Assembly (NCBI RefSeq): GCF_963921235.1
Contig: NC_086108.1
Span: 66,342,001-66,406,000, forward strand
DNA: 64,000 nt
Origin: Mobula hypostoma
Taxonomy: Eukaryota
Direction of reading: 5' to 3'
Part shown: piece by piece, positions 3,027-60,700 of the stretch
How positions within the stretch are numbered: the stretch's first letter is position 1
Layout: each line of letters starts with the position of its first letter
Translations under genes and position numbers: made by a program
Notes under the pieces: model-generated
The model's input: only the letters and a program-made list of their open reading frames with translations
Told to the model about the DNA's origin: nothing
Database searches by the model: none

Positions 3027-4267
3027 TTTTTTTTAAATCTTTTTATTGAGTAAGTATACAAAAAAGGTAAGCCATATAAACATTAATACAATGTTAAAGT
3101 ATAATAAAATTCCAAAAGATATCAATACCAAAAAGAAATTACTACAAACAATGTAATTTAAACATAAGAAACCAAGATAACATAATAGTATACTAAATTT
3201 TATATATATCAATGGAAAAAAAAGAAAAAAAAAACCCAAAAAAAACCCCACCGTGCAGCTAACTAAAAGCAAAGCAAAGCAATGGGCTAACTTGAAACCA
3301 AACAGAGTTAAACTTAAAATCATGTCCTCAATCCCGACCTCCATTAAAAACAGTGAAAAAAAAACAAGAAGGGTAAATATTACATTAAATGAAAATATCG
3401 AATAAAAGGTCCCCAAATCTGTTCAAATTTAAATGAAGAATCATAAAGGTTACTTCTAATTTTCTCCAAATTCAAACATAAAATCGTCTGAGAAAACCAA
3501 AAAAAGGTAGTTGGAGCATTAAGCTCTTTCCAATGTTGTAAAATACATCTTTTCGCCATTAAAGTAAGAAATGCAATCATTCTACGGGCTGAAGGGGAAA
3601 GATTACTAGAAATTTTAGGTAGTCCAAAGATAGCAGTAATAGGGTGAGGAGAGATATCTATATTTAATACCTTAGAAATAATATTGAAAATATCTCTCCA
3701 AAAAGTTTCCAAAGCAGGGCAAGACCAAAACATATGAGTTAAAGAGGCTATCTGCCCCGAACATCTATCACAGAAAGGATTAATATGCGAGTAAAAACGC
3801 GCTAACTTATCTTTGGACATATGTGCTCTATGAACCACTTTAAATTGAATTAGGGAATGTTTAGCACAAATAGAGGAAGTATTAACTAATTGTAAAATCT
3901 GCCCCCAATCATCCACAGAAATGGTAAGCCCCAATTCCTGTTCCCAATCTACCCTAATCTTATCAAATGGAACTTTCCTAAGTTTCATAATAATATTATA
4001 AATCATAGCCGATGCACCTTTCTGACATGGATTAAGGTTAATTATCGAATCTAAAATATATGTAGGAGGAAGCATTGGAAAGGAAGAAAGTATAGTACTT
4101 AGGAAATTTCTAACTTGTAAATATCTGAAAAAATGTATTCTTGATAAGTTATATTTATTAGATAATTGTTCAAAAGACATAAGGGAACCATCTAAAAATA
4201 AATCCAAAAACCGTAAAATACCCTTAGTCTTCCAAGTTTGAAAAGCGCGATCCGTAAAAGAGGGAGG
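3027..4267 (-). mobile_element. 5'-truncated L1-clade LINE with poly(A) tail and TSD
   Basis: Open ORF 3380-4288 with the C-terminal CCHC motif CDRC...HMFWSC. Poly(T) on the plus strand at about 3025-3034. Direct repeat ACCGTATGCCTTCTT at 3012-3026 and 4268-4282. Confidence 0.9.
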
Positions 4268-5009
4268 ACCGTATGCCTTCTTAACCACAGAGTCAAACTA
4301 CGCAGCAGCTTTGTGTGTCCTATGGACTCAGACGTCAAGATCCCTCTGATCCTCCACACTGCCAAGAGTCTTATGATTAATACTATATTCTGCCATCATA
4401 TTTGACCTACCAAAATGAACCACCTCACACATATCGGGTTGAATTCCATCTGCCACTTCTCAACCCAGTGTTGCATCCTATCAATATCCCGCTGTAACCT
4501 CTGACAGCCCTCCACACTACCCCTAACCTTTGTGTCATCAGCAAATTTACTAACCCATCCCTCCACTTCCTAATCCAGGTCATTTATAAAAATCATGAAG
4601 AGTAGGGGTCCCAGAACAGATCCCTGAGGCACACCACTGGTCACCGACCTCCATGCAGAATATGACCAATCTACAACCACACTTTGCCTTCTGTGGGCAA
4701 GACAGTTCTGGATTCACAAAGCAATATTCCCTTGGATCACATGCTTCCATACTTCCTCAATAACCCTTGTATTGGGTACGTTATCAAATGCCTGGCTGAA
4801 ATCCATATACACTACATCTATGGCTCTACCTTCATCAATATGTTTAGGCACATCCTTAAGAAGTTCAATCAGGCTTGTAAGGCATGACCTGCCTTTGACA
4901 AAGCCATGCTGACTATTCCTAATCATATTATGCCTCTTCAAATGTTCATAAATCCTGCCTGTCAGGATCTTTTCCATCAGCTTACCAACCACGGAACTCT
5001 GTAACACTC

Positions 5010-5614
5010 TGTAACACTTGCTTTGCCTAGTGGCATGATCACGGTGTGATAACCCCCTGCCTGGCCAAACCTTAGCACTCTCGTTTGGGTGGATGTTGTG
5101 TGTGGTGTCCCCTGTGTAAAATCAGTACCCCGAAATAACCAGCGGTACACAATGTGCAGTTAAATGATTAAGATTTTATATTTGACTACGGGGTTAGTAG
5201 AGAAACAAAATATCAAATAAAAGGGTGCCAATAATCTCATTAGGCAGTCCAGTGCACAAATCGTTGGAGCTCACAGATTTTTCTCTTCATTGATCCTCCT
5301 CCGATCATCACCGATTCCTGGGCTCCCGTCCCAAGCCCAGGGCCGAGAGGGTCTCACCACCCACTGTCTCCTCAAGCCATGTCTTTTCTCTTCATCCTCC
5401 TCGCGCCTTCTCCCCGAAGCCCGCGCAAACTAACAGCTTTCACACAGACAGAAAGGATAACATCTCTTCCATTGGTTAACACTGAATTCCAAAGCCCCAT
5501 TATCAGTTATAAAGGAAACATCCTGCTACAGAAACCCACTACCTCAGCAGTTAACATTACAGAGAATTTATTTTATAAGCCTTAGCAACTAACATGAAAG
5601 AAGAAACCCCTACA
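5010..5614 (-). repeat. 3' LTR of the myosin-carrying Gypsy element
   Basis: TG...CA ends (TGTAAC at 5010, CCTACA ending 5614); preceded on the minus strand by the purine-rich tract TTTGGTGGGGGGAGAG; duplicated at 8831-9310. Confidence 0.9.
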
Positions 5615-6081
5615 CTCTCCCCCCACCAAATTTAGTCATGTCCTCATGACATCTAAATAACTCGCCAACACTTCCTGCAGACACAAAAACCCAATCCAGG
5701 TACAAAGCAGTGACATTGCTCCACAGACAGTAGACCTTACTCCCAGTTCCCCAGGCGCTACATAGGCCAACCTATCGGGGAGTTTCCTAATCCTCTGAGA
5801 CCTCCATACCCCCTCACCTAACCCTTCAGGGTTGGACACTACTGGGGATTCCTCGGGTCTGCTTGCCGAATCCTCTCTCAATCATGCCACCCCGTCTCTC
5901 CTTCAGGGTCCTGAAGTAACCCAGGCTGCCTACAGCTAGCACCCCCCCCCCTGCCCACCTCACCTGACTCAGTGGGAGAAGGGCCAGAAGTCTCTTCATC
6001 AAACAGGGGGAAGTTAGTGAAAGGCAGCACGTACCACACCTCCATCTCATCATCTTTCGAATCCATATTCTTCCCCTTTTC

Positions 6082-6645
6082 CTCGATTTGTAGCAGCTGT
6101 TTGGTTCCCTCCACGCTGGTGCACTTGGCCTGGGCTGCTTCTGCAGCCTCCTCAGCCTTCTGTTATTGAGACAACAGCTTCTTCTTGGTCTCCTCCAACT
6201 CTCGCCACAGTCGCAGCAGTTCTGACTCACGCTTCTTGGCCATCTCAATCTGGTATGCAGTTACTCCACCAGCTTTTTCCACCTAGGCCTGATATTCCTT
6301 AATCTTCCTGTGAAAAACAGCAGTTAAATACTGTTCATCCTCCAATCTAGTGTTCACTGAACTTATCTCCAGCTTTTCCTTCTTAATGACTTCTTCCAGG
6401 TCAACTTTCAGTTTTTCCATTTCATTTAAGCTGTCGATGGTCATCCTCAGGTTCCCTTCAAGCTTCAGCTTCCCTCTTCTGAGATCTGTCTGCAATTGCT
6501 TCACCTCCTCTGAATTGTATTCAGACTTCCCTCTCTGGGCTCTCAGTTTTCTGTTGGCCTTAGTTAGACAGCTGTCTTTGTCTTCACCAACTTGCAAGCC
6601 TTCCAACTTGTTCTGGATCACTTTCTCCAGTCTCTGCTCGGAATT
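6082..6645 (-). pseudogene. Captured intronless sarcomeric myosin heavy-chain rod fragment (MYH16-like), in frame with pol
   Basis: Translation: [18 protein letters not shown]...[45 protein letters not shown]...[74 protein letters not shown]. This matches the myosin II rod motifs LQAEEDKVN.LTK, KLEGDL, EDEQ, RLEEAGGAT..QIE..KKRE.E and [39 protein letters not shown] resembles MYH16 as I recall it; the paralog call is less certain than the myosin call. Confidence 0.88.
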
Positions 6646-8807
6646 CTGTCTCTCTGTCTTCACTTCAAACTTGATCCCGTAGAGACAGTCACTCAGCTTC
6701 TCCTCCACCATTGTCCATTCCAACGCCAAGAAATTCAACTGGTGTGTTGGGTAATTTCTCCAATAATAACCACAGAATTCCACAAATGAAATCAGAACAC
6801 TCACCAATTATGACCTTCACCAGACCTGGTATGTGTCCAGAGAAAGCTTTAACTCTTTAGTTCTCAGCCGCTCCTGCAACAGCCTCACTTCATATTCTTC
6901 CGAGGCAGATCCAAATACTAGGAGATCATCCAAATACACCAAAACTCCAAACAACTCCACATCCCCTATCATCTTCCTCATGCCCCGCGGGAAAATTGCA
7001 AGGGCTCTGGATATGCCCTGGGGCATCTTTTCGGACTAGAAGAATCCCAGGGGACCTATAATGGCCGTCTTCTCCTTGCCGGCCTCACTTAGCAGGATTT
7101 GGCAACATCCACTCCTCAGATCCAGCATATTAAACCACTTTGCACCACTCAAACAGACCACTGCATCTTCAACCCTCGGGACCGCATATTGGTCGGGGAC
7201 AGTGCACCTATTCACAGTCCTAGAATCCATACACACACTGCCTACGTCTTCCACATCTGCAGGGGCCAGTCACCGTGACCCTTCTCTCACCAAGGCATCT
7301 TCAGCGGTCAACTCCCCCGTTTCTGGTATTTCGGAGCGTCCACTAAGAGGGCTTCACCCTCAGATACTCGCCCGGGCTGTACCACCATTTGCTCTCGTTT
7401 AACTTCAGTACCTGTCCCAATGCTGCCATACACATCTTCACCAGCAGCTCGAGATGCTGGGTGTACACATAATTCCCCCAAACAGCTCTCACCTGCCTTC
7501 CTCTAGCAGGCCCCCATGCGCCTCCTCACAAGCGGGGTGTGGGTCCCCTCCTGAGTCGAAACGCTGCCCGTCTCAACAGTGTCTGGACAAATCAGCACTA
7601 ACTACTCACGAATCTCAGACACCCACACCTTGGCCTCTGAGAGCTCCAGCTTCACTAACCAGTAATCGTTGTCTGGATAAACCCCAGCACTGATACTCCA
7701 AATCTCCAGTCCCCTGAATGGTGTCAAGAGTATATGCTTCAAATAACGAACTGTACAGCAACTTGACCTGCGCCCCAGTGTTGAGGATGGCCTTAGCATA
7801 GTTTCCATCTATCCGTAATGACACATGGGAGTGTGGTCCCACTAAGTCTTCAGGAATAGGGTCTTCTCCTTTCTGGAGATTCTGGTACATTCTGGGAACG
7901 TGTTCCCCCAGAGACCCCAAGCCGTTCCCCCACTGGGCTCCACTAAGTTTCCCGACACCTCTCTGATCAGCTGAACAACTGGGGGAGGGGCTGATCCCCT
8001 GAAATGATCCCCCTGGCACAGCAAGTAGTTTAGCTGCCCTCCTAGCCAGAGAAGATACACTAAAAGCTTTCCCCCAATCTCCTGACACAGGTATGGAAAG
8101 CCCCCCAGGTACTGTATGTTACTTCCAGTCGAACCAAATGCATTTTCGCACGCTTTCAGATAACTGGCAACTGACTACAGGATAATTGAACCTTACAGTT
8201 CTAACATCGTTAGCAGCCCGCCTACTCAAACTTTCAACCAATCCCTGTCGCTTTCCCTCAACCGGGCCGTGCCACTCATTTAACAACTGAGAGATCTGTT
8301 CCACCCACGTCTCACACACCTCCACTCCTTCAGGGGTGGGCATTATTCCAAAGGAAAAGCAGAGCCTGCGATAGCGGGAACATCTATTCACCAGAGAAAC
8401 AAAGGCAGACACAACCCTAGAATTCTCACTCTCCACCGGGGGACAAGAACTGATTAGACATCCCAACTCCATCCACTCTTCCCCCTCCCTCCTGACAGCC
8501 CATGGCCCCGCCTCACCTGGGGTACCAATAGACACTGGCAATCCCACCACCGTGACGTCAGTGCTAGCTCGTCCTAAAGCAAGGTTTGAGCCCACCATTT
8601 TATCAAACTTTTGCGTTACGATTTCAACTTTGCCATCAGCTTCAACCATACTCATAAATCGAATTAACAATTCATCCAAGGTATGAATATTCGCCCCACT
8701 CAACCCGCACACATTCCCACAGAGGTGCACATTACTAACCACAATCCTACAGAGACAAATCAGCACTGATTTAAACAGGGCGATCACACATCACCCCACT
8801 GAATCAA

Positions 8808-8827
8808 ATCCACGGACGAAGCCCCCA
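8808..8827 (-). promoter_or_regulatory. Primer-binding site, tRNA-Pro-like
   Basis: The minus strand reads TGGGGGCTTCGTCCGTGGAT, 3 nt inside the 5' LTR. The canonical PBS-Pro is TGGGGGCTCGTCCGGGAT, so this copy has two 1-nt insertions. Confidence 0.8.
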
Positions 8828-8830
8828 AAA

Positions 8831-9310
8831 GTAACACTCGCTTTGCCTAGTGGCATGATTGCAGGGTGATAACCCCCTGCCTGGCCAAACCTTAGCACTC
8901 TCTTTTGGGTGGATACTGTGTGTGGTGTCCCCTGTGTAAAATCAATACACCGAAATAACCAGCAGTACACAATGTGTGGTTAAATGATTAAGATTTTATA
9001 TTTGACTATGGAGTGAGTAGAGAAACAAAACATAAAATAAAAGGGCGCCAGTAATCTCATTAGGCAGTCCAGTGCACAAATTGTAGGAGCTCACGGATTT
9101 TTCTCTTCACTGATCCTCCTTTGATCATTGCCAACCTCTGGGCTCCCGTCCCGAGCCCAGGTCCCAGAGGGTCTCGCCACCCACCGTCTCCTCAAGCCAT
9201 GTCTTCTCTCTTCATCCTCCTCGCGCCTTCTCCCCGAATCCTGTGCAAACTAACAGTTTTCACACAGACAGAAAGAATAACATCTCTTCATTGGTTAACA
9301 CTGAGTTCCA
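8831..9310 (-). repeat. 5' LTR (5'-truncated) of the myosin-carrying Gypsy element
   Basis: Aligns with 5011-5490. The part matching 5491-5614 is missing and the sequence runs directly into CR1. Confidence 0.88.
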
Positions 9311-10861
9311 TTTCCCTAACATGTCCGTTCCAATCCCTCTCCAATACTATGGTAAAGGAGATAGAATTGTGGTCACTGTCTCCAAAATGCTCTCCCACTG
9401 AGAGACCTGACACCTGACCAGGTTCAGTTCCTATTACCAGATCAAGTACAGCCTCTCCTCTTATAGGCTTATACCTATTGTGTCAAGCAACCTTCCTGAA
9501 CACACCTAACAAACTCCACCCCATCTAAACCATAAATTCCTTCAAATCCTCCACCTGGTTGCTGGTCTTAAGAACTTCTTTAAGCTGGCTATTTAATCCC
9601 CATTTAAACAGAGCAACCAATGCCTTATTGTTCCACCTGCTCTCAGCTGCTCGGGTACAGAAATCAATGGAATAGCCAGCCACGGATCATGCTCCCTGAT
9701 GCAGCTGGAGGAGTCTGCTGGCTGCTTTTGAGACCTGACAGGATGATAGACTACTCTCCTTATCATTCATAGAAATAAATTTATATCAGAACACACAGGA
9801 ATGTCCTTCTCTCACAAAGCTGTTGCCCATAAAAGGGTCCTACCTGATAGGAGGGATATTATACAAGCCACCTTACTCCTGTCTGAGGAGAATTTTGTGG
9901 GTTGTAATTCAAAGAGTAGGGAGCATTGATTTAGGAACTCGTGGCAAGACTCAGGATCCCCATTGCACAGCTCTGGAGCTGACAGGTTAATTAACTCTGT
10001 GTGGTAATTCTGGGAACACGTAACAGGACACACAGGCAAATGCTCCAAACCAGAGTTGATCTCTGAGGAAAAAATCCCGCTTATTGGTCTCAGAATCCTT
10101 CCTCAATGATGCAAGTATCTCCTGGAGAAACTACTCTTGCTGTCCGACTGCCTGTCCCTGACTGGCCAATGCTGTGGAAAGCTGATCAGTCTCCATTGGG
10201 TCCATGATCAGCTGAGTCCTGTTGTAGCGATCTTCAGACAAGCTGACCCAGGTGTGGAGGAAACTCAGGACTCGATAGTAGAAATTAACGATGAAGATTT
10301 ACACAGAGAACACCACAGTGAATAACCAAACTAAGAGCTCACGTACTCAGGACTTCAGCACATAAAACAATAATTCACATAGAACTCAAATTCGGGATTG
10401 AACGATGAGCGATGGTCCAGAATAACCTTGTATAGAACATAAAACACAGGAAACCTGCGCAGTTCAAAATCAAAAACTGATCACTTAAGAATGGGAAGTA
10501 TAGGGAAACCATATTCACATAACAAGCATCACAAAAACACAGTGACAGCTTAATGATAAAAGTAGTCATTAGACAACTGTAATAAATTGCTACCCAGCCC
10601 CCCATCACTGGTTCAAAGGGTTCACAACATCTCCTCCCTTTACTGACTGTGAAGAACACAGTCACACTTTCCCCTCATACCCCCATCTGCTTATGAATCT
10701 GGCCAGGAAGGGGATGTATCTAGTTGTCAGGAGGGTTCCTGGAAACCTCCATTTAAGTGGGTTTCTCTGTAGAAATGGACTGTCTCTCCACATGTCCAAG
10801 CTCACTGAATGCTTACCATAATATTTAGGAATTCTGCGGTTTTCTTGCTCAATAAGATCTG

Positions 10862-17332: not shown

Positions 17333-20300
17333 ACATAGAAACATAGAAATATAGAAAACCTGCAGCACAATACAGGCCCTTCGGCCCACAAAGTTGGGCC
17401 GAACATGTCCCGACCTTGGAAATTACTAGGCTTACCTATAGCCCTCTATTTTACTAAGCTCCATATATCTATCCAAAAGTCTCTTAAAGGACCCTATCAT
17501 ATCCGCCTCCACCACCATTGCCGGCAGCCCATTCCACGCACTCACCACTCTCTGAGTAAAAAACTTACCCCTACAATCTCCTCAGCACCTTAAACCTGTG
17601 TCCTCTTGTGGCAACCATTTCAGCACTGGGAAAAAGCCTCTGACTATCCACACGATCAATGCCTCTTATCATCTTGTACACCTCTATCAGGTCACCTCTC
17701 ATCCTCCGTCGCTCCAAGGAGAAAAGGCCAAGTTCACTCAACCTGTTCTCATAAGGCATGCTCCCCAATCCAGGGCAACATCCTTGTAAATCTCCTCTGC
17801 ACCCTTTCAATGGCTTCCACATCCTTCCTGTAGTGAGGCAACCAGAACTGAGCATAGTACTCCAAGTGGGGTCTGACCAGGGTCCTATATAGAAACATAG
17901 AAACATAGAAAATAGGTGCAGGAGTAGGCCATTCGGCCCTTCGAGCCTGCACCGCCATTTATTATGATCATGGCTGATCACCCAACTCAGAACCCCGCCC
18001 CAGCCTTCCCTCCATACCCCCTGACCCCCGTAGCCACCCTCAGTCTTCTAAATTCCAACGAGTAAAAGCCCAATTCATCCAGTCTTTCTTCATATGAAAG
18101 TCCCGCCATCCCAGGAATCAATCTGGTGAACCTTCTTTGTACTCCCTCTATGGCAAAGATGTCTTTCCTCAGATTAGGGGACCAAAACTGCACACAATAC
18201 TCCAGGTGTGGTCTCACCAAGGCCTTGTACAACTGCAGTAGTACCTCCCTGCTCCTGTACTCGAATCCTCTCGCTATAAATGCCAGCATACCATTCGCCT
18301 TTTTCACCACCTGCTGTACCTGCTTGCCCACTTTCAATGACTGGTGTATAATGACACCCAGGTCTCGTTGCACCTCCCCTTTTCCTAATCGGCCACCATT
18401 CAGATAATAATCTGTTTTCCTATTTTTGCCACCAAAGTGGATAACTTCACATTTATCCACATTAAATTGCATCTGCCATGAATTTGCCCACTCACCCAAC
18501 CTATCCAAGTCACCCTGCATCCTCTTAGCATCCTCCTCACTGCTAACACTGCCACCCAGCTTCGTGTCATCCGCAAACTTGGAGATGCTGCATTTAATTC
18601 CCTCATCCAAGTCATTAATATATATTGTAAACAACTGGGGTCCCAGCACTGAGCCTTGCGGTACCCCACTAGTCACCGCCTGCCATTCTGAAAAGGTCCC
18701 GTTTATTCCCACTCTTTGCTTCCTGTCTGCTAACCAATTCTCCACCCAATAGCTGCAACATTACCTCTCATCAATTCCATGATTGATGAAGGCCAATACA
18801 CTGTATGCCTTCTTAACCACAGAGTCAACCTGCGCAGCTGCTTTGAGCGTCCGACTGACTCAGATGCAAAGATCCCTCTGATCCTCCACACTGCCAAGAG
18901 TCTTACGATTAATACTATATTCTACCATCATATTTGACCTACCAAAATGAACCACCTCACACTTACCTGGGTTGAACTCCATCTGCCACTTCTCAGCCCA
19001 GTTTTGCAGCCTATCAATGTCCTGCTGTAGCCCCTGACAGCCCTCCACACTATTCACAACACCTCCAACCTTTGTGTCATCAGCAAACTTACTAACCCAT
19101 CCCTCCACTTCCTCATCCAGATCATTTATAAAAATCATGAAGAGAAAGGGTCCCAGAATAGATCCCTGTGGGTCTCCACTGGTGACCAAGCTCCATGCAG
19201 AATATGACCCATCTGCAACGACTCTTTGCCTTCTGTGGGAAAACCGGTTCTGGATCCACAAAGCAACATCCCCTTGGATCCCATGCCCCCTTACTTTCTT
19301 AATAAGCCTTGCATGGGGTACCTTATCAAAAGCCTTGATGAAATCCATATACACTACATCTACTGCTCTTCCTTCATCAATGTGTTTAGTCACATCCTCA
19401 AAAAATTCAATCAGGCTCGTAAGGCACAACCTGCCCTTGACAAAGCTATGCTGACTATTCCTAATCATATTATGCCTCTCCATATGTTCATAAATCCTGC
19501 CTGTCAGGATCTTCTCCATCAACTTACCAACCACTGATGTAAGACTCACTGGTCTATAATTTCCTGGGCTACTTCTACTCCCCTTCTTGAATAAGGGAAC
19601 AACATCCGCAACTCTCCAATTGTCCGGAACCTCACCCATCCCCAGTGATGATGCAAGGATCATCGCCAGAGGCTCAGCAATCTCATTCCTCGCCTCCCAC
19701 AGTAGCCTGAGGTACATCTCATCTGGTCCCAGCGTCCTATCCAACTTGATGCTTTCCAAAAGCTCCAGCACATCCTCTTTCTTAATATCTACATGCTCAA
19801 GCTTTTCAGTCTGCTGCAAGTCATCACTACAATCACCTTTTCCATAGTGAATACTGAAGTAAAGTATTCATTAAGTACCTCTGCTATTTCCTCCAGTTCC
19901 ATACACACTTTCTCACTGTCACACTTGATAGGTCCTATTCTATCACGTCTTATCCTCTTGCTCTTCACATACTTGTAGAATGCCTTGGGGTTTTCCTTAA
20001 TCCTGCCCACCAAGGCCTTCTCATGGCCCCTTCTGACTCTCCTAATTTCCTTCTTAAGCTCCTTCCTATTAGCCTTATAATCTTCTAGATCTCTAACATT
20101 ACCTAGCTCTCCGAACCTTTTGTAAGCTTTTCTTTTCTTCTTGACTAGATTTATTACAGCCTTTGTACACCACAGTTCCTGTACCCTACCATAACTTTCC
20201 TGTCTCATTGGAACGTACCTATACAGAACTCCACACAAATATCCCCTGAACATTTGCCACATTTCTTCCGTACTTTTCCCTGAGAACATCTGTTTCCAAT

Positions 20301-21130
20301 TAAAACTTCCAATTTCCTGCCTGATAGCCTCATAATTCTCCTTACTCCAATTAAATGCTTTTCTAACTTGTGTGTTCCTATCTCTCTCCAATGCTATTGT
20401 AAAGGAGATAGAATTGTGATCACTATCTCCAAAATGCTCTCCCACTGAGAGATCTGACACCTGACCAGGTTCATTTCTCAATACCAAATCAAGTACAGCC
20501 TCTCCTCTTGTAGGCTTATCTACTTATTGTGTCAAGAAACCTTCCTAAACACACCTAACAAACTCCACCCCATCTACACCCCTTGCTCTAGGGAGATGCC
20601 AATCGATATTTGGGAAAGTAAAATCTCCCATCATTACAACTCTGTTATTATTACACCTTTCCAGGATCTGTTTCCCTATCTGCTCCTCGATATCCCTGTT
20701 ACTATTGGGCGGCCTTTAAAAAGCACCCAGTAAAGTTATTGACCCCTTCCTGTTCCTAACCTCCACCCACAGAGACTCTGTAGACAATCCCTCCATGGCG
20801 TCTATCTTTTCTGCAGCCGTGACACTATCTGTGATCAACAGTGCCATGCCCCACCTCTTTTGCCTCCCTCCCCGTCCTTTCTGAAATATCTAATACCTGG
20901 CACTTGAAGTAACCATTCCTGTCTCTGAGCCATTCTAGTCTCTGTAATGGCCACCACATCATATCTTCAAGTACCGATCCATGCTCTAAGCTCATCTGCT
21001 TTGTTCACAACACTCCTTGTTTTAAAATAGACACATTTCAAACCTTCAGTCTGAGCGCGTCCCTTCTCTATCACCTGCCTATCCTCCCGCTCACACTGTC
21101 TACAAGTTTTCTCTATTTGTAAGCCACCCT
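17333..21130 (-). mobile_element. CR1 LINE, near-complete ORF2 (frameshifted)
   Basis: ORFs 19789-20487, 18860-19819 (NYRPVSLTS...KFADDTK) and 17571-17981; (aaacatag)n tail at 17333. Confidence 0.93.
17893..18748 (-). mobile_element. Nested 5'-truncated CR1 of another subfamily
   Basis: Open 252-aa ORF 17987-18745 (RT C-terminal half) with its own tail at 17893. It interrupts the host at ...cctatatag|ctgcaac. Confidence 0.9.
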
Positions 21131-26300: not shown

Positions 26301-26405
26301 AACAACATACATCAAAGTTGCTGGTGAACGCAGCAGGCCAAGCAGCATCTATAGGAAGAGGTGCAGTCGACGTTTCAGGCCGAGACCCTTCGTCAGGACT
26401 CAATA
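26301..26405 (-). mobile_element. Short Penelope pLTR fragment inserted in CR1
   Basis: Same sequence as the pLTRs at 61857 and 63274; flanked by the direct repeat CTTATACTCAATA (26288-26300 and 26406-26418). Confidence 0.85.
26365..26400 (-). ncRNA. Minimal type I hammerhead ribozyme (Penelope-associated)
   Basis: AGUC-CUGACGA-AGGGUCUCGGCCU-GAAA-CG-UC-GACU: stem I AGUC/GACU, intact core, palindromic ACGU stem III, GUC cleavage triplet. Confidence 0.8.
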
Positions 26406-28686
26406 CTTATACTCAATACTTTGATTAATAAAGGCCAACGTACCAAAAGCTCTCTTTACGACCCTATCCACCTGTGACGCCACTTTTAGGGAATTTCGTA
26501 TCTGTATTCCCAGATCCCTCTGTTCTACTGCACTCCTCAGTGCCTTACCATTAACCCTGTATGTTCCACCTTGGTTTGTCCTTCCAACGTGCAATACCTC
26601 ACACTTGTCTGTATTAAACTCCATCTGCCATTTTTCAGCCCATTTTTCCATCTGGTCCAAGTCCTTCTGCAGGCTCTGAAAACCTTCCTCACTGTCTACT
26701 ACACCTCCAATCTTTGTATCAACAGCAAATTTGCTGATCCAATTTACCACATTATCATCCAGATCATTGATATAGATGACAAATAACAATGGACCCAGCA
26801 CTGATCCCTGTGGCACACCACTAGTCACAGGCCTCCACTTGGAGAAGCAATTCTCTACTACCACTCTTTGGCTTCTTCCATCGAGCCAATGTCTGATCCA
26901 ATTTACCACCTCTCCATGTATGCCTAGCGACTGAATTTTCCTAACTAACCTCCCATGCGGGAGCTTGTCAAAGGCCTTACTGAAGTCCATGTAGACAATA
27001 TCCACTGCCTTCCCTTCATCCATTTTCCTGGTAACCTCCTCGTAAAACTCCAATAGATTGGTCAAACATGACCTACCACGCACAAAGCCATGTTGACTCT
27101 CCCTAATAAGTCCCTGTCTATCCAAATGCTTGTAGATTCTGTCTCTTAGTACTCCCTCCAATAACTTACCTACTACCGACATTAAACTTACCAGCCTATA
27201 ATTTCCCGGATTACTTTTCGATCCTTTTTTAAACAACGGAACAACATGAGCCACTCTCCAATCCTCCGGCACCTCACCTGTAGACAGCGACATTTTAAAT
27301 ATATCTGCCAGGGCCCCTGCAATTTCAACACTAGTCTCCTTCAAGGTCCAAGGGAACACCCTGTCAGGTCCCGCGGATTTATCCACTTTAATTTTCCTCA
27401 AGACAGCAAGCACCTCCTCCTTTTCAATCTCTACAGTTTCCACGATCTTACTACTTGTTTCCCTTAATTCCATAGACTTCATGCCAGTTTCCTTAGTAAA
27501 TACAGATGCAAAAAACCTGTTTAAGATCTCCCCTATTTCCTTTGGTTCTGCACTTAGCCGACCACTCTGATCTTCAAGAGGACCAATTTTATCCCTTACA
27601 ATCCTTTTGCTCTTAATATACCTGTAAAAGGTCTTTGGATTATCCTTCAATTTGACTGCCAAGGCAACCTCATGTCTTTTTTTATCCCTCCTGATTTCTT
27701 TCTTAAGTATTTTCTTGCACATCTTATACTCCTCAAGCACTTTATTTACTCCCTGTTTGCTATACATGTCATACAACTCCCTTTTCTTCTTTATCAGAGT
27801 TGCAATATCCCTTGAGGACCAAGGTTCCTTATTCCTATTCAATTTGCCTTTAATCCTGACAGGAACATACAAACTCTGCACTCTCAAAATTTCTCCTTTG
27901 AAGGCTTCCCACCTACCGATCACATCTTTGCCAGAGAACAACCTGTCCCAATCCACACTTTTTAGATCCTTTCTCAGTTCTTCAAATTTGGCCTTCTTCC
28001 AGTTCAGAACCTCAACCCTAGGACCAGATCTATCCTTGTCCATGATCAAGTCGAAACTAATGGTGTTATTCACTGGAACCAAAGTGCTCCCCTACACAGA
28101 CTTCCGTCACTTGTCCTAACTCGTTTCCTAACAGGAGATCCAATACTGTATCCCCTCTAGTTGGTCCCTCTATATATTGATTTAGAAAACTTTCCTGAAC
28201 ACATTTTACAAACTCTAAACTATCTAGACCCCTAACAGTATGGGAGTCCCAATCAATATATGGAAAATTAAAATCCCCTACCACCACAACTTTATGTTTC
28301 CTGCAGTTGCCTGCTATCTCTCTGCAGATTTGCTCTTCCAATTCTCATTGACTATTGGGTGGTCTGTAATACAATCCCACTAATGTGGCCATACCTTTCC
28401 TGTTTCTCAGCTCCACCCATAAGGACTCAGTAGACAAGCCCTCTATTCTGCATTGAAATATATACACCTCAGATTACACTGTTCCAGGAGTCCTGTAATT
28501 ATAGGTGGAAACATGGAAGCATGAAAAAGCATGGCACATGATTCTAAATTAAACTAAGACCATCTGCCTACATATGGTCCGTATCCCTCAGTTTGCTACC
28601 TATTTATGTCTAAATGCCTCTTAGAAGCAATTGAGATATCTGTTCCTACTGCCTTCCTGGGCAGTTCCAGGCATCAATACCCTGGG

Positions 28687-31600
28687 ATAGAACATAGAAT
28701 AGTACGACACAGTACAGGCCCGTCAGCCCACAATATTGTGCCGACCCTCAAACCCTGCTTCCCATATAACCCCCCACCTTAAATTCCTCCATATACCTGT
28801 CTAGTAGTCTCTTAAATTTCACTAGTGTATCTGCCTCCACCACTGACTCAGGCAGTGCATTCCACGCACCAACCACTCCCTGAGTAAAAAACCTTCCTCT
28901 AATATCCACCTTGAACTTCCCACCCCTTACCTTAAAGCCATGTCCTCTTGTATTGAGCAGTGGTGCCCTGGGGAAGAGGCACTGGCTATCCACTCTATCT
29001 ATTCCTCTTAATATATTGTACACCTCTATCATGTCTCCTCTCATCCTCCTTCTCTCCAAAGAATAAAGCCCTAGCTCCCTTAATCTCTGATCATAATTCA
29101 TACTCGCTAAACCAGGCAGCATCCTGCTAAATCCCCTCTGTACCCTTTCCAGTGCTTCCACATCCTTCTTATAGTGAGGCGACCAGAAATGGACACAGTG
29201 CTCCAAGTGTGGCCTAACCAGAGTTTTATAGAGCTGCATCATTACCTAGCGACTCTTAAACTCTATCCCTCGACTTATGAAAGCTAATACCCCATAAGCT
29301 TTCTTAACTACCCTATCTACCCATGAGGCAACTTTCAGGAATCTGTGGACATGTACCCCCAGATCCCTCTGCTCCTCCATATTTCCAAATATCCTGCCAT
29401 TTACTTTGTACTCTGCCTTGGAGTTTCTCCTTCCAAAGTGTACCATTTCATACTTCTCTGGGTTGAACTCCATCTGCCACTTCTCAGCCCACTTCTGCAT
29501 CCTATCAATGTCTCTCTGCAATCTTCGACAATCCTCTACACTATCCACAATACCACCAACCTTTGTGTTGTCTGCAAACTTGTCAGCCCACCCTTCTACC
29601 CCCACATCCAGGTCATTAATAAAAGTCACGCAAAGTGGAGGTCTCAGAAACGATCCTTGCGGGACACCACTAGTCACAATCCTCCAATCCGAATGCAAGC
29701 GAATTCTGAATCCACCTGGCCAAACTTCCCTGGATTGCATGCCTTCTGACTGTCTGAATAAGTCTACCGTGTGGAACCTTGTCAAATGCCTTACTAAAAT
29801 CCACGTAGATCACATCCACTACACTACCCTCATCTATATGCCTGGTCACCTCCTCAAAGAACTCTACCAGGCTTGTTAGAGATAATCTGCCCTTCACAAA
29901 GCCATGCTGACTGTCCCTGATCAGACAATGATTCTCTAAATGCCCATAGATCCTATCTCTAAGAATCTTTTCCAACAGCTTTCCCACCATAGTCATAAGG
30001 CTCACTGGTCTATAATTACCCAGACTATGCCTACTACCTTTTTTGAACAAGGGGACAACATTCGCCTCCCTCCAATCCTCCGGTACTATTCCTGTGGACA
30101 ATGAGGACATAAAGATTCTAGCCAGAGACTCAGCGATCTCTTCCCTCGCTTCTTGGAGCAGCCTGGGGAATATTCTGTCAGGCCCTGGGGATTTATTCGT
30201 CCTAATGTATTTTAACAACTCCAACACCTCCCCTCCCTTAATATCAACATGCTCCAGAATATCAACCTCACTCATATTGTTCTCATCGTCATCAAGTTCC
30301 CTCTCATTGGTGAATACCGAAGAGGAGTATTCATTGAGGACCTCGCTCACTTCCACAGCCTCCAGGCACATCTTCCCACCTTTATCTCTGATTGGTCCTA
30401 CTTTCACTCCTGTCATCCTTTTGTTCTTCACATAATTGAAGAATGCCTTGGGGTTTTCCTTTACCCTACTCTCCAGGGCCTTCTCATGCCCCCTACTTGC
30501 TCTCCTCAGATAATTCATTTAATTATTTATTAAATAATTCGCTTAATTATTTATGGTGCAACTGTAACGAAAACCAATTTCCCCCGGGATCAATAAAGTA
30601 TGACTATGATTATGACTAACCCCTTCTTCAGCTCCTTTCTTGCTTCCCTATATTCCTCCATAGACCCATCTGATCCTTGCTTCGTAAACCTCATGTATGC
30701 TGCCTTCTTCCACCTGACTAGATTTTCCACCTCACTTCATGGTTCCTTCACCCTACCATTCTTTATCTTCCTCACCGGGACAAATTTATCCCTAACAACC
30801 AACAAGAGATCCCTAAACATCGACCACATGTCTATAGTACATCTCCCTGCAAAAACATCCCAATTCACACCCGCAAGTTCTAGCCTTATAGCCTCATAAT
30901 TTGCTCTTCTCCAATTAAAAATTTTCCTGACCTCTCTGATTCTATCCTTTTCCATGATAATGCTAAAGGCCAGGGAGCGGTGGCCACTGTCCCACAGATG
31001 CTCACCCACTGAGAGACCTGTGACCTGACCTGGTTCGTTACCTAATACTAGATCTAGTATGGTATTCCCCTAGTCGCCTGTCTAAACCCTTGGAGCTAAT
31101 CAGGTGCCAATCAATATTAGGGAAGTTAAAGTCACCCATGATAACAAACCTGCTATTTTTGCACCTTTCCAAAATCTGCCTCCCAATCTGCTCCCCGGTA
31201 TCTCTGCTGCTACCAGGGGGCCTATAGAATACTCCCAATAGAGTAACTGCTCCCTTCCTGTTCCTAACTTCCACCCATACAGACTGAAAAGAGGATCCTG
31301 CTACATTACCCACCCTTTCTGTAGCTGTAATAGTATCCCTGACCAGAAATGTCACTCCTCCTCCCCTTCCCCCCTACCCCATCCCTTTTAAAGCACTGAA
31401 ATCCAGGAATATTGAGAATCCATTCCCGCCCTGATGCCAGCCAAGTCTCTGTAATGGCTGCTACATCATAATTACACTTGTGTATCCAAGCTCTCAGTTC
31501 ATCACCTTTGTTCCTGATGCTTCTTGCATTGAGGTACACACACTTTAGCCCTTCTACCTTACTACCTTTACACCCTTTATTTTGCTTCTCTTTCCTCAAA

Positions 31601-40790: not shown

Positions 40791-41579
40791 CAATTCCTAG
40801 GAGTGCTGACTCTCTCCACCACTGATCTTCCAAAGTAGTCTGCACCATGTTTGCCCTCCTGACCCTTCCTAAACTCAACAATCAGTTCTGTTGGAAGACT
40901 GTCAGTGTAGAAACATTGTGATCCACCAGCAGTTTGTCTATCAAGGTTGTTGATCAAGAAAGAGAAGAGCAATAAACACCACGCAAGAGAGTAAGCAGGT
41001 CAGTTACAGAACATGCAAAAGTTGATTTCAACATTTTGAATCAATAAGAGAGAATGCAAGATGCTGGCTCATTGAAAGGCTCTTTGCAATTTCTTGACTT
41101 CACTGTGGAAGACACTAGCAGTATTCCAGAAATTTGAGAGTGTCGGGGGGCAGAGTTGAGTGTAATTACTATTAATAAGAATAAAGTGTTTGGGAAGATA
41201 AAAGTCTGAAGGTAGATAAGTCACCTAGATCAGATAGACTACACCCCAGGGTTCTAAAAGAGGTAGCTTAACAGTCTGTGGAGGGATTAGTAATAACCTT
41301 TCAAAAATCACCAGATTCTGGAATGGTTCTGGAGGACTGGAAAATTGCAAATTTCACTCTACTCTTCAAGAAGTTGGGGGGGGGCAGAAGAAAGGAAATT
41401 ATAGACCAGTTAGCCTGACTTCAGTGGTTGGAAAGATGATTGAGTTCATTATTCAGGATGAGGCTTTGGGGGACTTGGACGCACATGATAAAATAGGCCA
41501 AAGTCAACTTGGTTTCCTTATGGGAAATCTTGCCTAACAAATTTGTTGGAATTCTTTGAGGAAATAACAGGCAGGATAT

Positions 41580-43280
41580 TTTTTTTTTGCATCTGTATTT
41601 ACTAAGGAAGCTGGCATGAAATCTATGGAATTGAGGGAATCAAGTAGTGAGACCATGGAAACTGTACAGATTGAAAAGGAGGAGGTGCTTGCTGTCTTGA
41701 GGAAAATTAAAGTGGATAAATCCCCGGGACCTGACAGAGTGTTCCCTCGGACCTTGAAGGAGACTAGTGTTGAAACTGCGGGGGCCCTGGCAGAAATATT
41801 TAAAATGTCGCTGTCTACGGGTGAAGTGCCGGAGGATTGGAGAGTGGCTCATGTTGTTCCGTTGTTTAAAAAAGGATCGAAAAGTAATCCGGGAAATTAT
41901 AGGCCAGTGAGTTTAACGTCAGTAGTAGGTAAGTTATTGGAGGGAGTACTAAGGGACAGAATCTACAAGCATTTGGATAGACAGGGGCTTATTAGGGAGA
42001 GTCAACATGGCTTTGTGCGTGGTAGGTCATGTTTGACCAATCTGTTGGAGTTTTTCGAGGAGGTTACCAGGAAAGTGGATGAAGGGAAGGCAGTGGATAT
42101 TGTCTACATGGACTTCAGTAAGGCCTTTGACAAGGTCCCGCATGGGAGGTTAGTTAGGAAAATTCAGTCGCTAGGTATACATGGAGAGGTGGTAAATTGG
42201 ATTAGACATTGGCTCGAAGGAAGAAGCCAGAGAGTGGTGGTAGAGAATTGCTTCTCTGAGTGAAGGCCTGTGACTAGTGGTGTGCCACAGGGATCAGTGC
42301 TGGGTCCATTGTTATTTGTCATCTATATCAATGATCTGGATGATAATGTGATAAATTGGATCAGCAAGTTTGCTGATGATACAAAGATTGGAGGTGTAGT
42401 AGACAGTGAGGAAGGTTTTCAGAGCCTGCAGAGGGACTTGGACCAGCTGGAAAAATGGGCTGAAAAATGGCATATGGAGTTTAATACTGACAAGTGTGAG
42501 GTATTGCACGTTGGAAGGACAAACCAACGTAGAACATACAGGGTTAATGAGGAGTGCAGTGGAACAGAGGGATCTGGGAATACAGATACAAAATTCCCTA
42601 AAAGTGTCATCACAGGTAGATAGGGTCATAAAGAGAGCTTTTGGTACGTTGGCCTTTATTAATCTAAGTATTGAGTATAAGAGCTGGAATGTTATGATGA
42701 GGTTGTATAAGGCATTGGTGAGGCCGAATCTGGAGTATTGTGTTCAGTTTTGGTCACCAAATTACAGGAAGGATATAAATAAGGTTGAAAGAGTGCAGAG
42801 AAGGTTTACAAGGATGTTGCCGGGACTTGAGAAACTCAGTTACAGAGAAAGGTTGAATAGGTTAGGACTTTATTCCCTGGAGCGTAGAAGAATGAGAGGA
42901 GATTTGATAGAGGTATATAAAATTATGATGGGTATAGATAGAGTGAGTGCAAGCAGGCTTTTTCCACTGAGGCAAGGGGAGAAAAAAACCAGAGGACATG
43001 GGTTAAGGGTGAGGGGGGAAAAGTTTAAAGGGAACATTAGTGGGGGCTTCTTCACACAGAGAGTGGTGGGAGTATGGAATGAGCTGCCAGACGAGATGGT
43101 AAATGCGGGTTCTTTTTTAATGTTTAAGAATAAATTGGACAGATACATAGATGGGAGGTGTATGGAGGGGTATGGTCCGTGTGCAGGTCAGTGGGACTAG
43201 GCAGAAAATGGTTCGGCACAGCCAAGAAGGGTCAAAGGGCCTGTTTCTGTGCTGTAGTTTCTATGGTTCTATGGTTCTAT
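41580..43280 (+). mobile_element. Nested young CR1 (same subfamily as 25697-28450)
   Basis: ORFs 41616-42263, 42270-42623 and 42406-43200; tail ttctatggttctatggttctat. Confidence 0.95.
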
Positions 43281-57799: not shown

Positions 57800-60700
57800 T
57801 GCATCTATTTCAATGCAAAGAATATTGTAGGTAAGTGAGATGAGCTTTGAGCATGGAAAAGCACGTGGAATTATGATTTTGTAGCCAATCGTGAGATTTA
57901 GTTTCAAGAGGGGCAGCACTGGCAGCTCAGTGTTCTGGGATTCCATTGTTTTAGATATGATAGAGGGCAGATATTAAAGGGGAGGGGTTGCATTACGCTT
58001 CAGGCAAAATAGCACAACGATGAGAAAACAGGAAAGACTGGAGGGCTTATCTATTGAAGCTGCATGTGTTGAACTGAGGAAATAAGACAGGGATAACCAC
58101 ATTAATGGGATTACATTATAGACCTCCCAATTGTCCATGGGATTTAGAGGAGCAAATTGGTCGAGTTTACAGTTAGTTGCAAATAAAATAAAGTTATGAT
58201 AATAGGTTATTTTAATTTTCCTAATATTGACTGGGACTACCTACTGTAAAATGATTGGGTGGGATAGAATTTATCAATGGTGTTCGGGAAAGTATCCTTA
58301 AGTAATATATAGAGGTCACAGCTAGAGAGAGCATGGTACTGGATCTTCTATTAGGGAAGGACACAAAACTGCTAACAGAAGGGGAACACTTTGGATCCAG
58401 TGATCTTAATTCCATGATTTTCAAGATAATTATGAAGAAGGACTGGATCTCAAGTTGAGATTCTAAATTGCAGAAAGGCCAATTTTGATGGCATCAGAAA
58501 GGATGCAGGTGTGGTTTGGGACAGGCTGTTTTCTGGCAAAGGAATGCAAGGGAAGTGGCAGACCTTCGCAAATGCAATACTGAGCATACAGAATTTGTAT
58601 GCTCCTGTCAGAATACAAGATAATCCTAAATGGGAGTTTAGGGAATCTTGTTTTTCAAGGGAAATTGAGGCCCTGGTTCAGAAGAAGGAGGTGCATTGTA
58701 GGCATAGGCAGCAATGAACAAATGAGGGATATAAGAAATGCAAGAGAACACTTAAAAGGGATAGCTGGAGGCTAAAATAAGGCACAATTTTGCTCTGGCA
58801 GATAAAGGTGAAGGAGCCTTCTACAGATATATTAACAACAAGAGGATAGCAAGGCACAAAGCAGGTCCACTTGAAGATCAGCGTGGTTATCTATACATGG
58901 GGCTGAAAGAGATGGGGAAGATCTTAAATGGGTTTTTGGCAACTGCATTTACTCAGAAGATGGACACAGAGTCTATAGAACTGAGGCTAAACAGTAGTGA
59001 GGTCATTAACTGTATCCAGATTACAGAAGAGGAGGTGCTTGCTGTCTTGAGGCAACTTAGGGTGGGTAAGTCCCCAGGGCCTGATAAAGTGTCCCCTCAG
59101 ACCTTGTGGGACATTAGTGCGGAAATCACAGGAGCCCTGGCAGAGGCATTTAAAATGTCCTTAACCATGGGTGAGGTACCAGAGGACTGGAGGATAGCTA
59201 ATGTTGTTCAATTGTTCATGAATAGTTCTACACATAAGCCAGAAAATTATAGGCCAGTGAGCCCAACATCAGTACTGTGGGACAGGAAATATCAGTCTTT
59301 GGATAGACATGTCCTGATTAGGGATAGTCAACGTGGTAGGTCGTGTCTAAACATCTTACAGAGTTATTCGAGTATGTTACCAGGAAAGTTAGATCATAAG
59401 ACGTAGGAGCAGAATTAGGCCATTTGGCCCAGTGTGTCAGCCCTACTACTTCATAATGGCTGATTTCTAGTAACGTATACAAAATGCAGGAAGAGCTCAG
59501 CAGGTCGGGCAGCATCTATGGAATGGAATAAACAGTCAACACTTTGGGCCAAGATCCTTCATTAGGACTGCAGCCGATTTATCATCTCTCTCAACCCCAT
59601 TCTCCTGTCTTTTCCCAATACCTCTGACACATTTACTAATCAAGAATCTATTTAAATATATCCAATTCCACAGATTTACCATCCTCTGTCTAAAGGAATT
59701 CCACCTCATCTCTGTTCTGAAGGGACTATTCTGTGGCTGTGCCCTTAGGTCCTAGACTCACCCACTATCCTCTCCATGGCCACTCTATGTAGACCTTCCA
59801 ATATTTGATAGGTTTCAATAACATCCCTCCTCATTCTTCTAACTCCAGTGAGTACAGGCCCTGAGCCATCAAACACGCCTTGTACATTAACCCTTTCATT
59901 CCCAGAATCATTCCCGTGAACTTCCTCTGGAAACTGTCCAATGCCAGCTCATCCTTTTCTAGATAAGGTGTCCAAAATTGCTCACAATTCTCCAAGTACA
60001 GACTGACCAAAACATTAAAAAGCCTTAGCATTGCATCTTTACTTTTATATTTAAGTCTTCTTGAAATGAATGCTACTACTGCATTTGCCTTCCTTACCAC
60101 TGATTCAATCTGCAAATTAATCCTTAGGGAATCCTGCACAAGGACTCTCAAGTCCCTTTCCACCTATAATTTCTGAATTTGCTCAACGCTTAGAAAATAG
60201 TCTATGTCTTTATTCTTTCTACCAAAGTGCACGACCATACACTTCCCTATTCTATAGTCCATTTCCCACCTCTTTGCCCTTTCTCATAATCTAAGTCCTT
60301 CTGCAGATTTTCTACCTCCTCAACATTATCTGCCCCTCCACCTATCTTTGTATCATCTGCAAACTTGGCTACAAAGCCATCAATTCCATCATCCAAATCA
60401 TTGACATAATGTGAAAAGAAGTGGTCCCAACACCAACCTCTGCAGAACACCACTTGTCAATGGTAACCATACTGAACAAACACCCTTTATTCCCACTTTT
60501 GCCTCCTGCCAGTCAGACAATTTTCTACCCATGCTGCTTTCTTCCCTAGCTCTTATCTTGATTAGCTTCCTCATGTGCAGCACCTTGTCAAAGGCCTTCT
60601 GAAAATCCAAGTAAACAACGATGACTTAGTGGGAGAAACCAGGAAGTGGTAGTAGATGGTTGTCTCTCTGACTGGAGGCCTGTGACTAGTGCTGTATCTC

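Follow-up and report, generated by a model that had tools for sequence, protein, structure and literature searches.

Acutely transforming retroviruses are helper-dependent and carry intronless host sequence fused to gag or pol. Long terminal repeat (LTR) retrotransposons in genomes can also take up host messages, and for the resulting LTR-mediated retrocopies a template-switch mechanism has been modeled (Tan et al. 2016, PMC5131818, in the portion used here). A defective-interfering RNA of mouse hepatitis virus, according to part of PMC8255065, replicates better with an open frame even if its chimeric protein is non-functional. Here we analyze a 64,000-nucleotide (nt) stretch of Mobula hypostoma DNA (contig NC_086108.1), hereafter the window, in which a Gypsy LTR element carries part of a myosin heavy-chain message. 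The element belongs to a multicopy family that was, in our view, likely founded by template-switch capture and in which the protein is likely a passenger, with selection probably acting on the translatability of the RNA. Captures of this kind have a published mechanism (PMC5131818). No printed precedent was found for the scale of this one, for its surviving intermediates, for an apparently headless donor, or for the frame signal. The first-pass annotation of the window knew of no description of such an element: neither the ray element nor a headless fish MYH16-like gene was found described in the open-access literature, and the main text of the manta and devil ray genome preprint (10.64898/2026.10.27.761883) contains 0 occurrences of "myosin" or "MYH".

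A spliced myosin message and its donor gene

Judged from its sequence, the window element is Gypsy-derived and non-autonomous: an LTR pair, a primer-binding site, and a polypurine tract are kept, integrase is absent, and gag, reverse transcriptase, and RNase H carry deletions. On its minus strand, the frame 6807-5878 (positions count from the first letter of the window) leads from RNase H-like residues by way of myosin to the pol tail; it contains exactly two internal stops and never shifts frame, just as the first-pass annotation had read it. The same annotation placed about 190 codons of myosin at 6645-6082. The myosin identity was upheld, as residues 53-174 of open reading frame (ORF) 6807-6286 match residues 992-1113 of myosin-7 (E = 4e-14), but the start lies near 6665, and what had seemed continuous consists of four blocks. 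Pfam Myosin_tail_1 was not called on the ORFs of the window, and the identification rests on the protein match, the alignment to host exons, and a tree. The insert (6665-6082) tracks the spliced exons of one host gene at 87-92% identity, and seven splice junctions (Z/A, A/B, B/C, C/D, D/E, F/G, and K/H) are crossed exactly at AG/GT edges. The insert has lost 72, about 105, and 624 nt internally, in each case at a short repeat. The proposal of an intronless copy made from mRNA is thus borne out by the exon-exon junctions, and the insert is, on this alignment, a capture from a spliced host mRNA.

The donor was located by a genome search with the N-terminal part of a Narcine protein. It lies at 14.40-14.71 Mb on contig C68 of genome G000, where twelve exons, Z to H, with AG/GT edges and introns of up to about 80 kb, join into 541 stop-free codons. 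The portion of exon G that is missing from the insert matches the genome at a single place, the host locus itself, and the donor is therefore single-copy there. The earlier label "MYH16-like" was right about the grouping: in a tree of 22 rows, from which one fetched row was dropped for short coverage and in which MYH7B and MYH15 are not securely represented, the donor is sister to 13 MYH16-type rows at 100/100. Set against MYH16 as treated in part of PMC6402096, however, it does not look like the canonical muscle gene. In this tree it sits on a long branch outside the MYH16 clade, and it is 58-61% identical to full-length MYH16 models; its first exon does not encode myosin, and the rod begins directly behind it (L032:1500-1590, L031:1510-1660; C68:14401226, 14480487). 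Between 3.7 and 15.3 Mb of C68, a search that gives a lower bound only detected no match to a motor domain. The best rod matches in the genome for a closer canonical MYH16 reached 61-69%, with only 24 of 4850 candidates scored. The N-terminal peptide of the donor occurs in none of the fetched full-length myosins and also heads models of Narcine (electric ray), Polyodon (paddlefish), Danio (zebrafish), and Syngnathoides (pipefish). The donor would then be an ancient motor-less (headless) MYH16-like rod gene; alternatively, an internal alternative promoter within a full-length myosin gene could produce such a transcript. A headless myosin rod protein exists in Drosophila. At least eight myosin-head loci are clustered at 15.3-15.9 Mb of C68, about 0.6 Mb from the donor.

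Integrase loss and capture in a multicopy family

The insert is not confined to the window. A genome search with it returned 797 first-look candidates, of which 40 were scored; this number, like the 702, 2747, and 492 candidates of other searches, is a first-look number and not a copy number. All 29 of the other fetched loci carry the insert in the same Gypsy element, in agreement with the earlier suggestion of a non-autonomous multicopy LTR family, and the LTR pairs of three full copies fetched are 89.7-93.8% identical. Integrase-region DNA, which the first-pass annotation reported missing from the window element, was found in none of 39 sequences (the window element and 38 loci; L001 is the window). 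Mobula, Hypanus, and Hemitrygon all have named element-type proteins in which the junctions recur, and the capture therefore predates the split between stingrays and devil rays. Matches in Narcine are to the host gene and not to the element, although absence of the element from Narcine is weak evidence. That a spliced message was captured and then amplified as described is, in our judgment, practically certain. At two loci, L006 and L030, an LTR directly adjoins the myosin part and gag-pol is lost. Two element frames, P0006 and P0151, are annotated as isoform X1 of TMEM192 (Hypanus) and GSTT2 (Mobula birostris), either as an artefact or as an LTR-driven chimeric transcript.

The first-pass annotation held that myosin had replaced the integrase and read the frame as running from RNase H into myosin. 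Comparison with other copies does not support replacement as a mechanism, nor an origin of the RNase H-myosin joint in the capture itself. In the longer copies L002, L004, L035, and L036, the end of RNase H is kept and myosin begins at the start of exon Z; the RNase H-myosin joint of the window is therefore a later deletion within a longer capture. Relatives L057-L059 carry an integrase between RNase H and the same tail, with rve and H2C2 domains in L057 and L058. A third form, L056 (230-360), stands for a subfamily of the same Gypsy family that has neither myosin nor integrase. Of its 279 candidates, 40 were scored, and 11 of these extend across the deletion joint to query position 76 or farther. 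The letters that follow the end of myosin match the L056 joint at 7 or more of 10 positions in 33 of 37 myosin copies, compared to mostly 2-5 of 10 for the tail side of integrase-bearing elements. Between two patches of homology lie 39 letters in L056 and 1578 in the host mRNA; about 1.6 kb of mRNA took the place of some 40-55 nt of element. Microsimilarity at the switch points amounts to 10 of 11 letters at the 5' end and to 5 exact letters plus 8 of 10 at the 3' end (no chance model was applied). It is very likely that the integrase was lost before myosin was captured.

Two other origins can be weighed against this order of events. Had a full-length element exchanged its integrase for myosin mRNA in a single direct step, the end state would fit, since none of the myosin copies tested has an integrase; yet the letters past the end of myosin derive from upstream of the integrase and form the same deletion joint as in myosin-free copies, which makes a single replacement improbable. 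An ordinary L1-type processed pseudogene that landed in one LTR copy would account for the lack of introns and should betray itself by a poly(A) and a target duplication, as the first-pass annotation recognized, and by a single copy. Neither of the first two is present at the insert (the longest A run is 5, and its ends are not duplicated), the insert derives from the interior of an mRNA and is bounded by homology on either side, and junctions shared across many loci and species refute this origin, to which we assign next to no probability.

We propose instead, as the simplest history, that capture followed integrase loss. A Gypsy family of myliobatiform rays gave rise to an integrase-less internal-deletion subfamily, into which a double template switch during reverse transcription could have drawn a co-packaged germ-line mRNA. 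Stepwise deletions at short repeats then produced several subfamilies, presumably spread in trans by integrase-bearing relatives acting as putative helpers through the kept LTRs, primer-binding site, and polypurine tract. The myosin residues would be a passenger, and the spreading lineages may have been selected for a stop-free frame through the degenerate gag-pol-myosin-tail. The most likely cause of such selection would be that translated RNA escapes nonsense-mediated decay or is packaged better.

Residue drift and open frames

Measured against the host exons, the ratio of nonsynonymous to synonymous substitution (dN/dS) is 0.58-1.37 per copy (n = 38 copies), and private stops number 9 against 9.9 expected, the neutral rate. 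On shared myosin changes, dN/dS is 0.88-1.12. Because dN/dS is close to 1 and private stops accumulate neutrally, the protein is not conserved and inserted copies decay. The main sampled subfamily (26 copies) has no majority-shared stop, the most frequent occurring in 8 of 19 copies. A derived subfamily, L060-62, has frames of 836, 812, and 724 codons that extend from the gag remnant to the tail, none with an integrase. Its 142 fixed substitutions relative to older copies include 0 stops against 5.0-5.5 expected (Poisson probability about 0.005), with a dN/dS by region of 1.16, 0.88, and 2.36, and its five large fixed length differences (159, 78, 138, 27, and 9 nt) are all divisible by three. 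Against 926 rare substitutions there are 112 rare indels, 96 of which shift the frame. Just two small indels recur in 8 or more of the 26 copies; they lie in gag and at the tail end, outside a central stretch of about 600 codons over which some 15 fixed small frameshifts would be expected and none was resolved. By hand count, 81 of 139 scored matches lack a stop, for a query that also includes tail residues common to myosin-free elements. Of 40 copies picked by an 81-nt patch alone, 18 are among those 139 matches, unshifted across myosin and tail, and 13 are stop-free (also a hand count). Six loci of Hypanus have models of their own, 632-729 residues long, which are 93-97% alike and have a gag junction unlike that of the frames here.

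These frames might be nothing but those of a pure neutral passenger, open through the youth of copies, a bias of deletions toward the reading frame, and the choice of the longest frames. Several observations weigh for such neutrality or against selection on the frame. The ratio dN/dS is about 1 throughout, and L060-62 were chosen for openness, as long frames among the 139 top-scoring matches. Control frames are overdispersed, with 29 stops against 21.7 expected and two frames with only 1. In copies of the older subfamily, gag and pol are read in different frames (a 77-nt step, with remainder 2 in 13 of 21), and one poly-G site is ambiguous, with remainders of 2, 0, and 1 in 11, 8, and 5 of 24. 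The long frame of L060 lacks an early Met (the first is at 324, compared to 39 in L061), and deletions in coding repeats are partly expected to stay in frame (53-79% under a microhomology null). The Hypanus models, too, could be open only because stops are spliced out. What neutrality explains less readily is the lack of stops and of small frameshifts among fixed differences, the 18 unshifted copies picked by patch, and the independent long frame of Hypanus, which shares only 51-57% of its residues with the L060/L061 frames. We regard a pure passenger as a real though less favored possibility, and lean, by a modest degree, toward selection in the prolific lineages to keep the frame open. A fusion of gag remnant and myosin coiled coil with a role of its own, for example in co-assembly with helper particles or muscle filaments, would also call for long open frames, and such frames appear as RefSeq protein models in Mobula, Hypanus, and Hemitrygon. 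The near-neutral dN/dS of shared myosin changes, the loss of different myosin parts (9 to 837 nt) in different subfamilies, and the same low identity between Hypanus and G000 frames all speak against it, and we think such a role very improbable.

If selection does act on the frame, its openness without conservation of the protein hints that translation itself, rather than the product, aids spread. In its fullest form, about which we are evenly divided, this reading would have two ray families independently keep an element-long frame open over tens of millions of years while its residues drift, in the manner of a defective-interfering genome, with a cargo drawn from a headless MYH16-like rod gene that is ancient in jawed fishes and apparently undescribed. 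Hundreds of natural copies would then make it testable whether the RNA of a retrotransposon must be translated to be copied. A search of sequencing runs listed no RNA dataset with the element. In three presumed-RNA runs and one DNA run, short family-like contigs occurred in 30 of 30 bins at 80% likeness, mostly less than 95% alike and none spanning the element; the RNA nature of the three runs is a guess, and the contigs do not show transcription of the window locus.

The window copy and known systems

The copy in the window is an old, dead member of its family (Table 1). The first-pass annotation had listed both LTRs, a proline-type primer-binding site, and the polypurine tract as retained. 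This holds in full for the polypurine tract and the 3' LTR; the primer-binding site is an imperfect match, its tRNA-Pro label presumptive, and the 5' LTR is truncated: similarity begins at 9310, and 5613-5480 of the 3' LTR has no upstream counterpart. Relatives L063 with L057, and L058, show the Ty3/Gypsy order of protease, reverse transcriptase, RNase H, and integrase; the window aligns in the same order, and its pol tail, DSKDDEMEVWY, matches that of integrase-bearing relatives. No target-site duplication is readable in the window element; other copies have one of 4 nt (L061) or one matching in 3 of 4 letters (L062).

Table 1. Parts of the Gypsy element and its insertion target, in window coordinates
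Feature	Position	Strand	Evidence or remark
5' LTR without its first ~120 nt	8831..9310	-	481 nt at 90.6% identity to 5491-5011; Kimura two-parameter distance (K2P) 0.099
Primer-binding site, imperfect, presumed tRNA-Pro type	8808..8827	-	Directly after LTR end
gag remnant, PNMA-like, deleted and frameshifted	7842..8660	-	Pfam PNMA, E = 4.3e-6; blocks aligned to integrase-bearing relative L063 + L057
Protease-region remnant	7550..7830	-	Alignment to protease region of L063; no Pfam match
Reverse-transcriptase remnant with YLDD, broken by stops and deletions	6817..7290	-	Pfam RVT_1, E = 5.9e-6
RNase H remnant	6653..6804	-	77-80% to RNase H region of relative; Pfam RT_RNaseH only at E = 0.083
Myosin block 1: end of host exon Z, start of exon A	6628..6665	-	87% to spliced host exons
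Myosin block 2: end of exon A, exons B, C, and D, start of exon E	6264..6638	-	89%; splice edges; stop codon at 6285-6283
Myosin block 3: end of exon F, start of exon G	6186..6281	-	92%
Myosin block 4: end of exon K, most of exon H	6082..6201	-	87%; stop codon at 6165-6163
Integrase-deletion junction and pol tail	5878..6081	-	10 nt past myosin end: 8/10 to myosin-free deletion form, 4/10 to integrase-bearing tail side
Polypurine tract	5615..5627	-	Present
3' LTR, complete, TG...CA	5010..5614	-	LTR pair comparison
Flanking LINE (long interspersed element) reverse transcriptase, insertion target of the element	4400..5000	-	Pfam RVT_1, E = 7.6e-9

At the right boundary, the final 10 nt of the 3' LTR are repeated in tandem (5000-5019). 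The flanking LINE, which we take to be of CR1 type from its motifs, seems to be short by several hundred bases, which were probably lost together with the start of the 5' LTR (9310-9400 and 4400-5000), to go by the presumed spacing of CR1 motifs. Other long frames of the window (3380-4297, 17987-20523, 26400-30518, 41568-43200, and 58765-59406) look like what we presume to be LINE reverse-transcriptase or tail pieces. The window contains no tRNA genes.

Copies of the element are annotated as myosin or as isoforms of host genes in Mobula, Hypanus, and Hemitrygon and will inflate myosin counts. The donor suggests that fishes share a conserved gene for a motor-less myosin rod. Beyond annotation, a vertebrate here offers a case of LTR gene transduction at the level of a whole family, and a single genome preserves its donor, its parent, the deletion form that preceded capture, and successive derivatives. 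Compared with acutely transforming retroviruses, the ray element has no env and gives no sign of selection on the captured protein. It is closer to the LTR-mediated retrocopies covered in the part of PMC5131818 used here, which likewise hold a partial spliced mRNA in a discontinuous LTR element, with microsimilarity at both switch points, without a poly(A), and with secondary retroposition that preserves shared switch points. Those retrocopies exist in few copies, whereas the ray element has subfamilies, hundreds of candidates, an occurrence in two ray families, stepwise deletion, and apparent maintenance of a frame. Maize Bs1, as presented in the same portion, is likewise a non-autonomous LTR element; it has transduced spliced host sequence and keeps the same switch points from copy to copy, but has 1-5 copies and three donors, compared to one donor, a vertebrate host, and far more copies here. 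With the defective-interfering RNA of mouse hepatitis virus, as far as the cited part of its description extends, the ray element shares dependence on a putative helper, internal deletion, and a chimeric open frame without conservation of the protein. That system is an RNA virus and ours a genomic retrotransposon, in which a requirement for an open frame is suggested by counts of stops and frameshifts.

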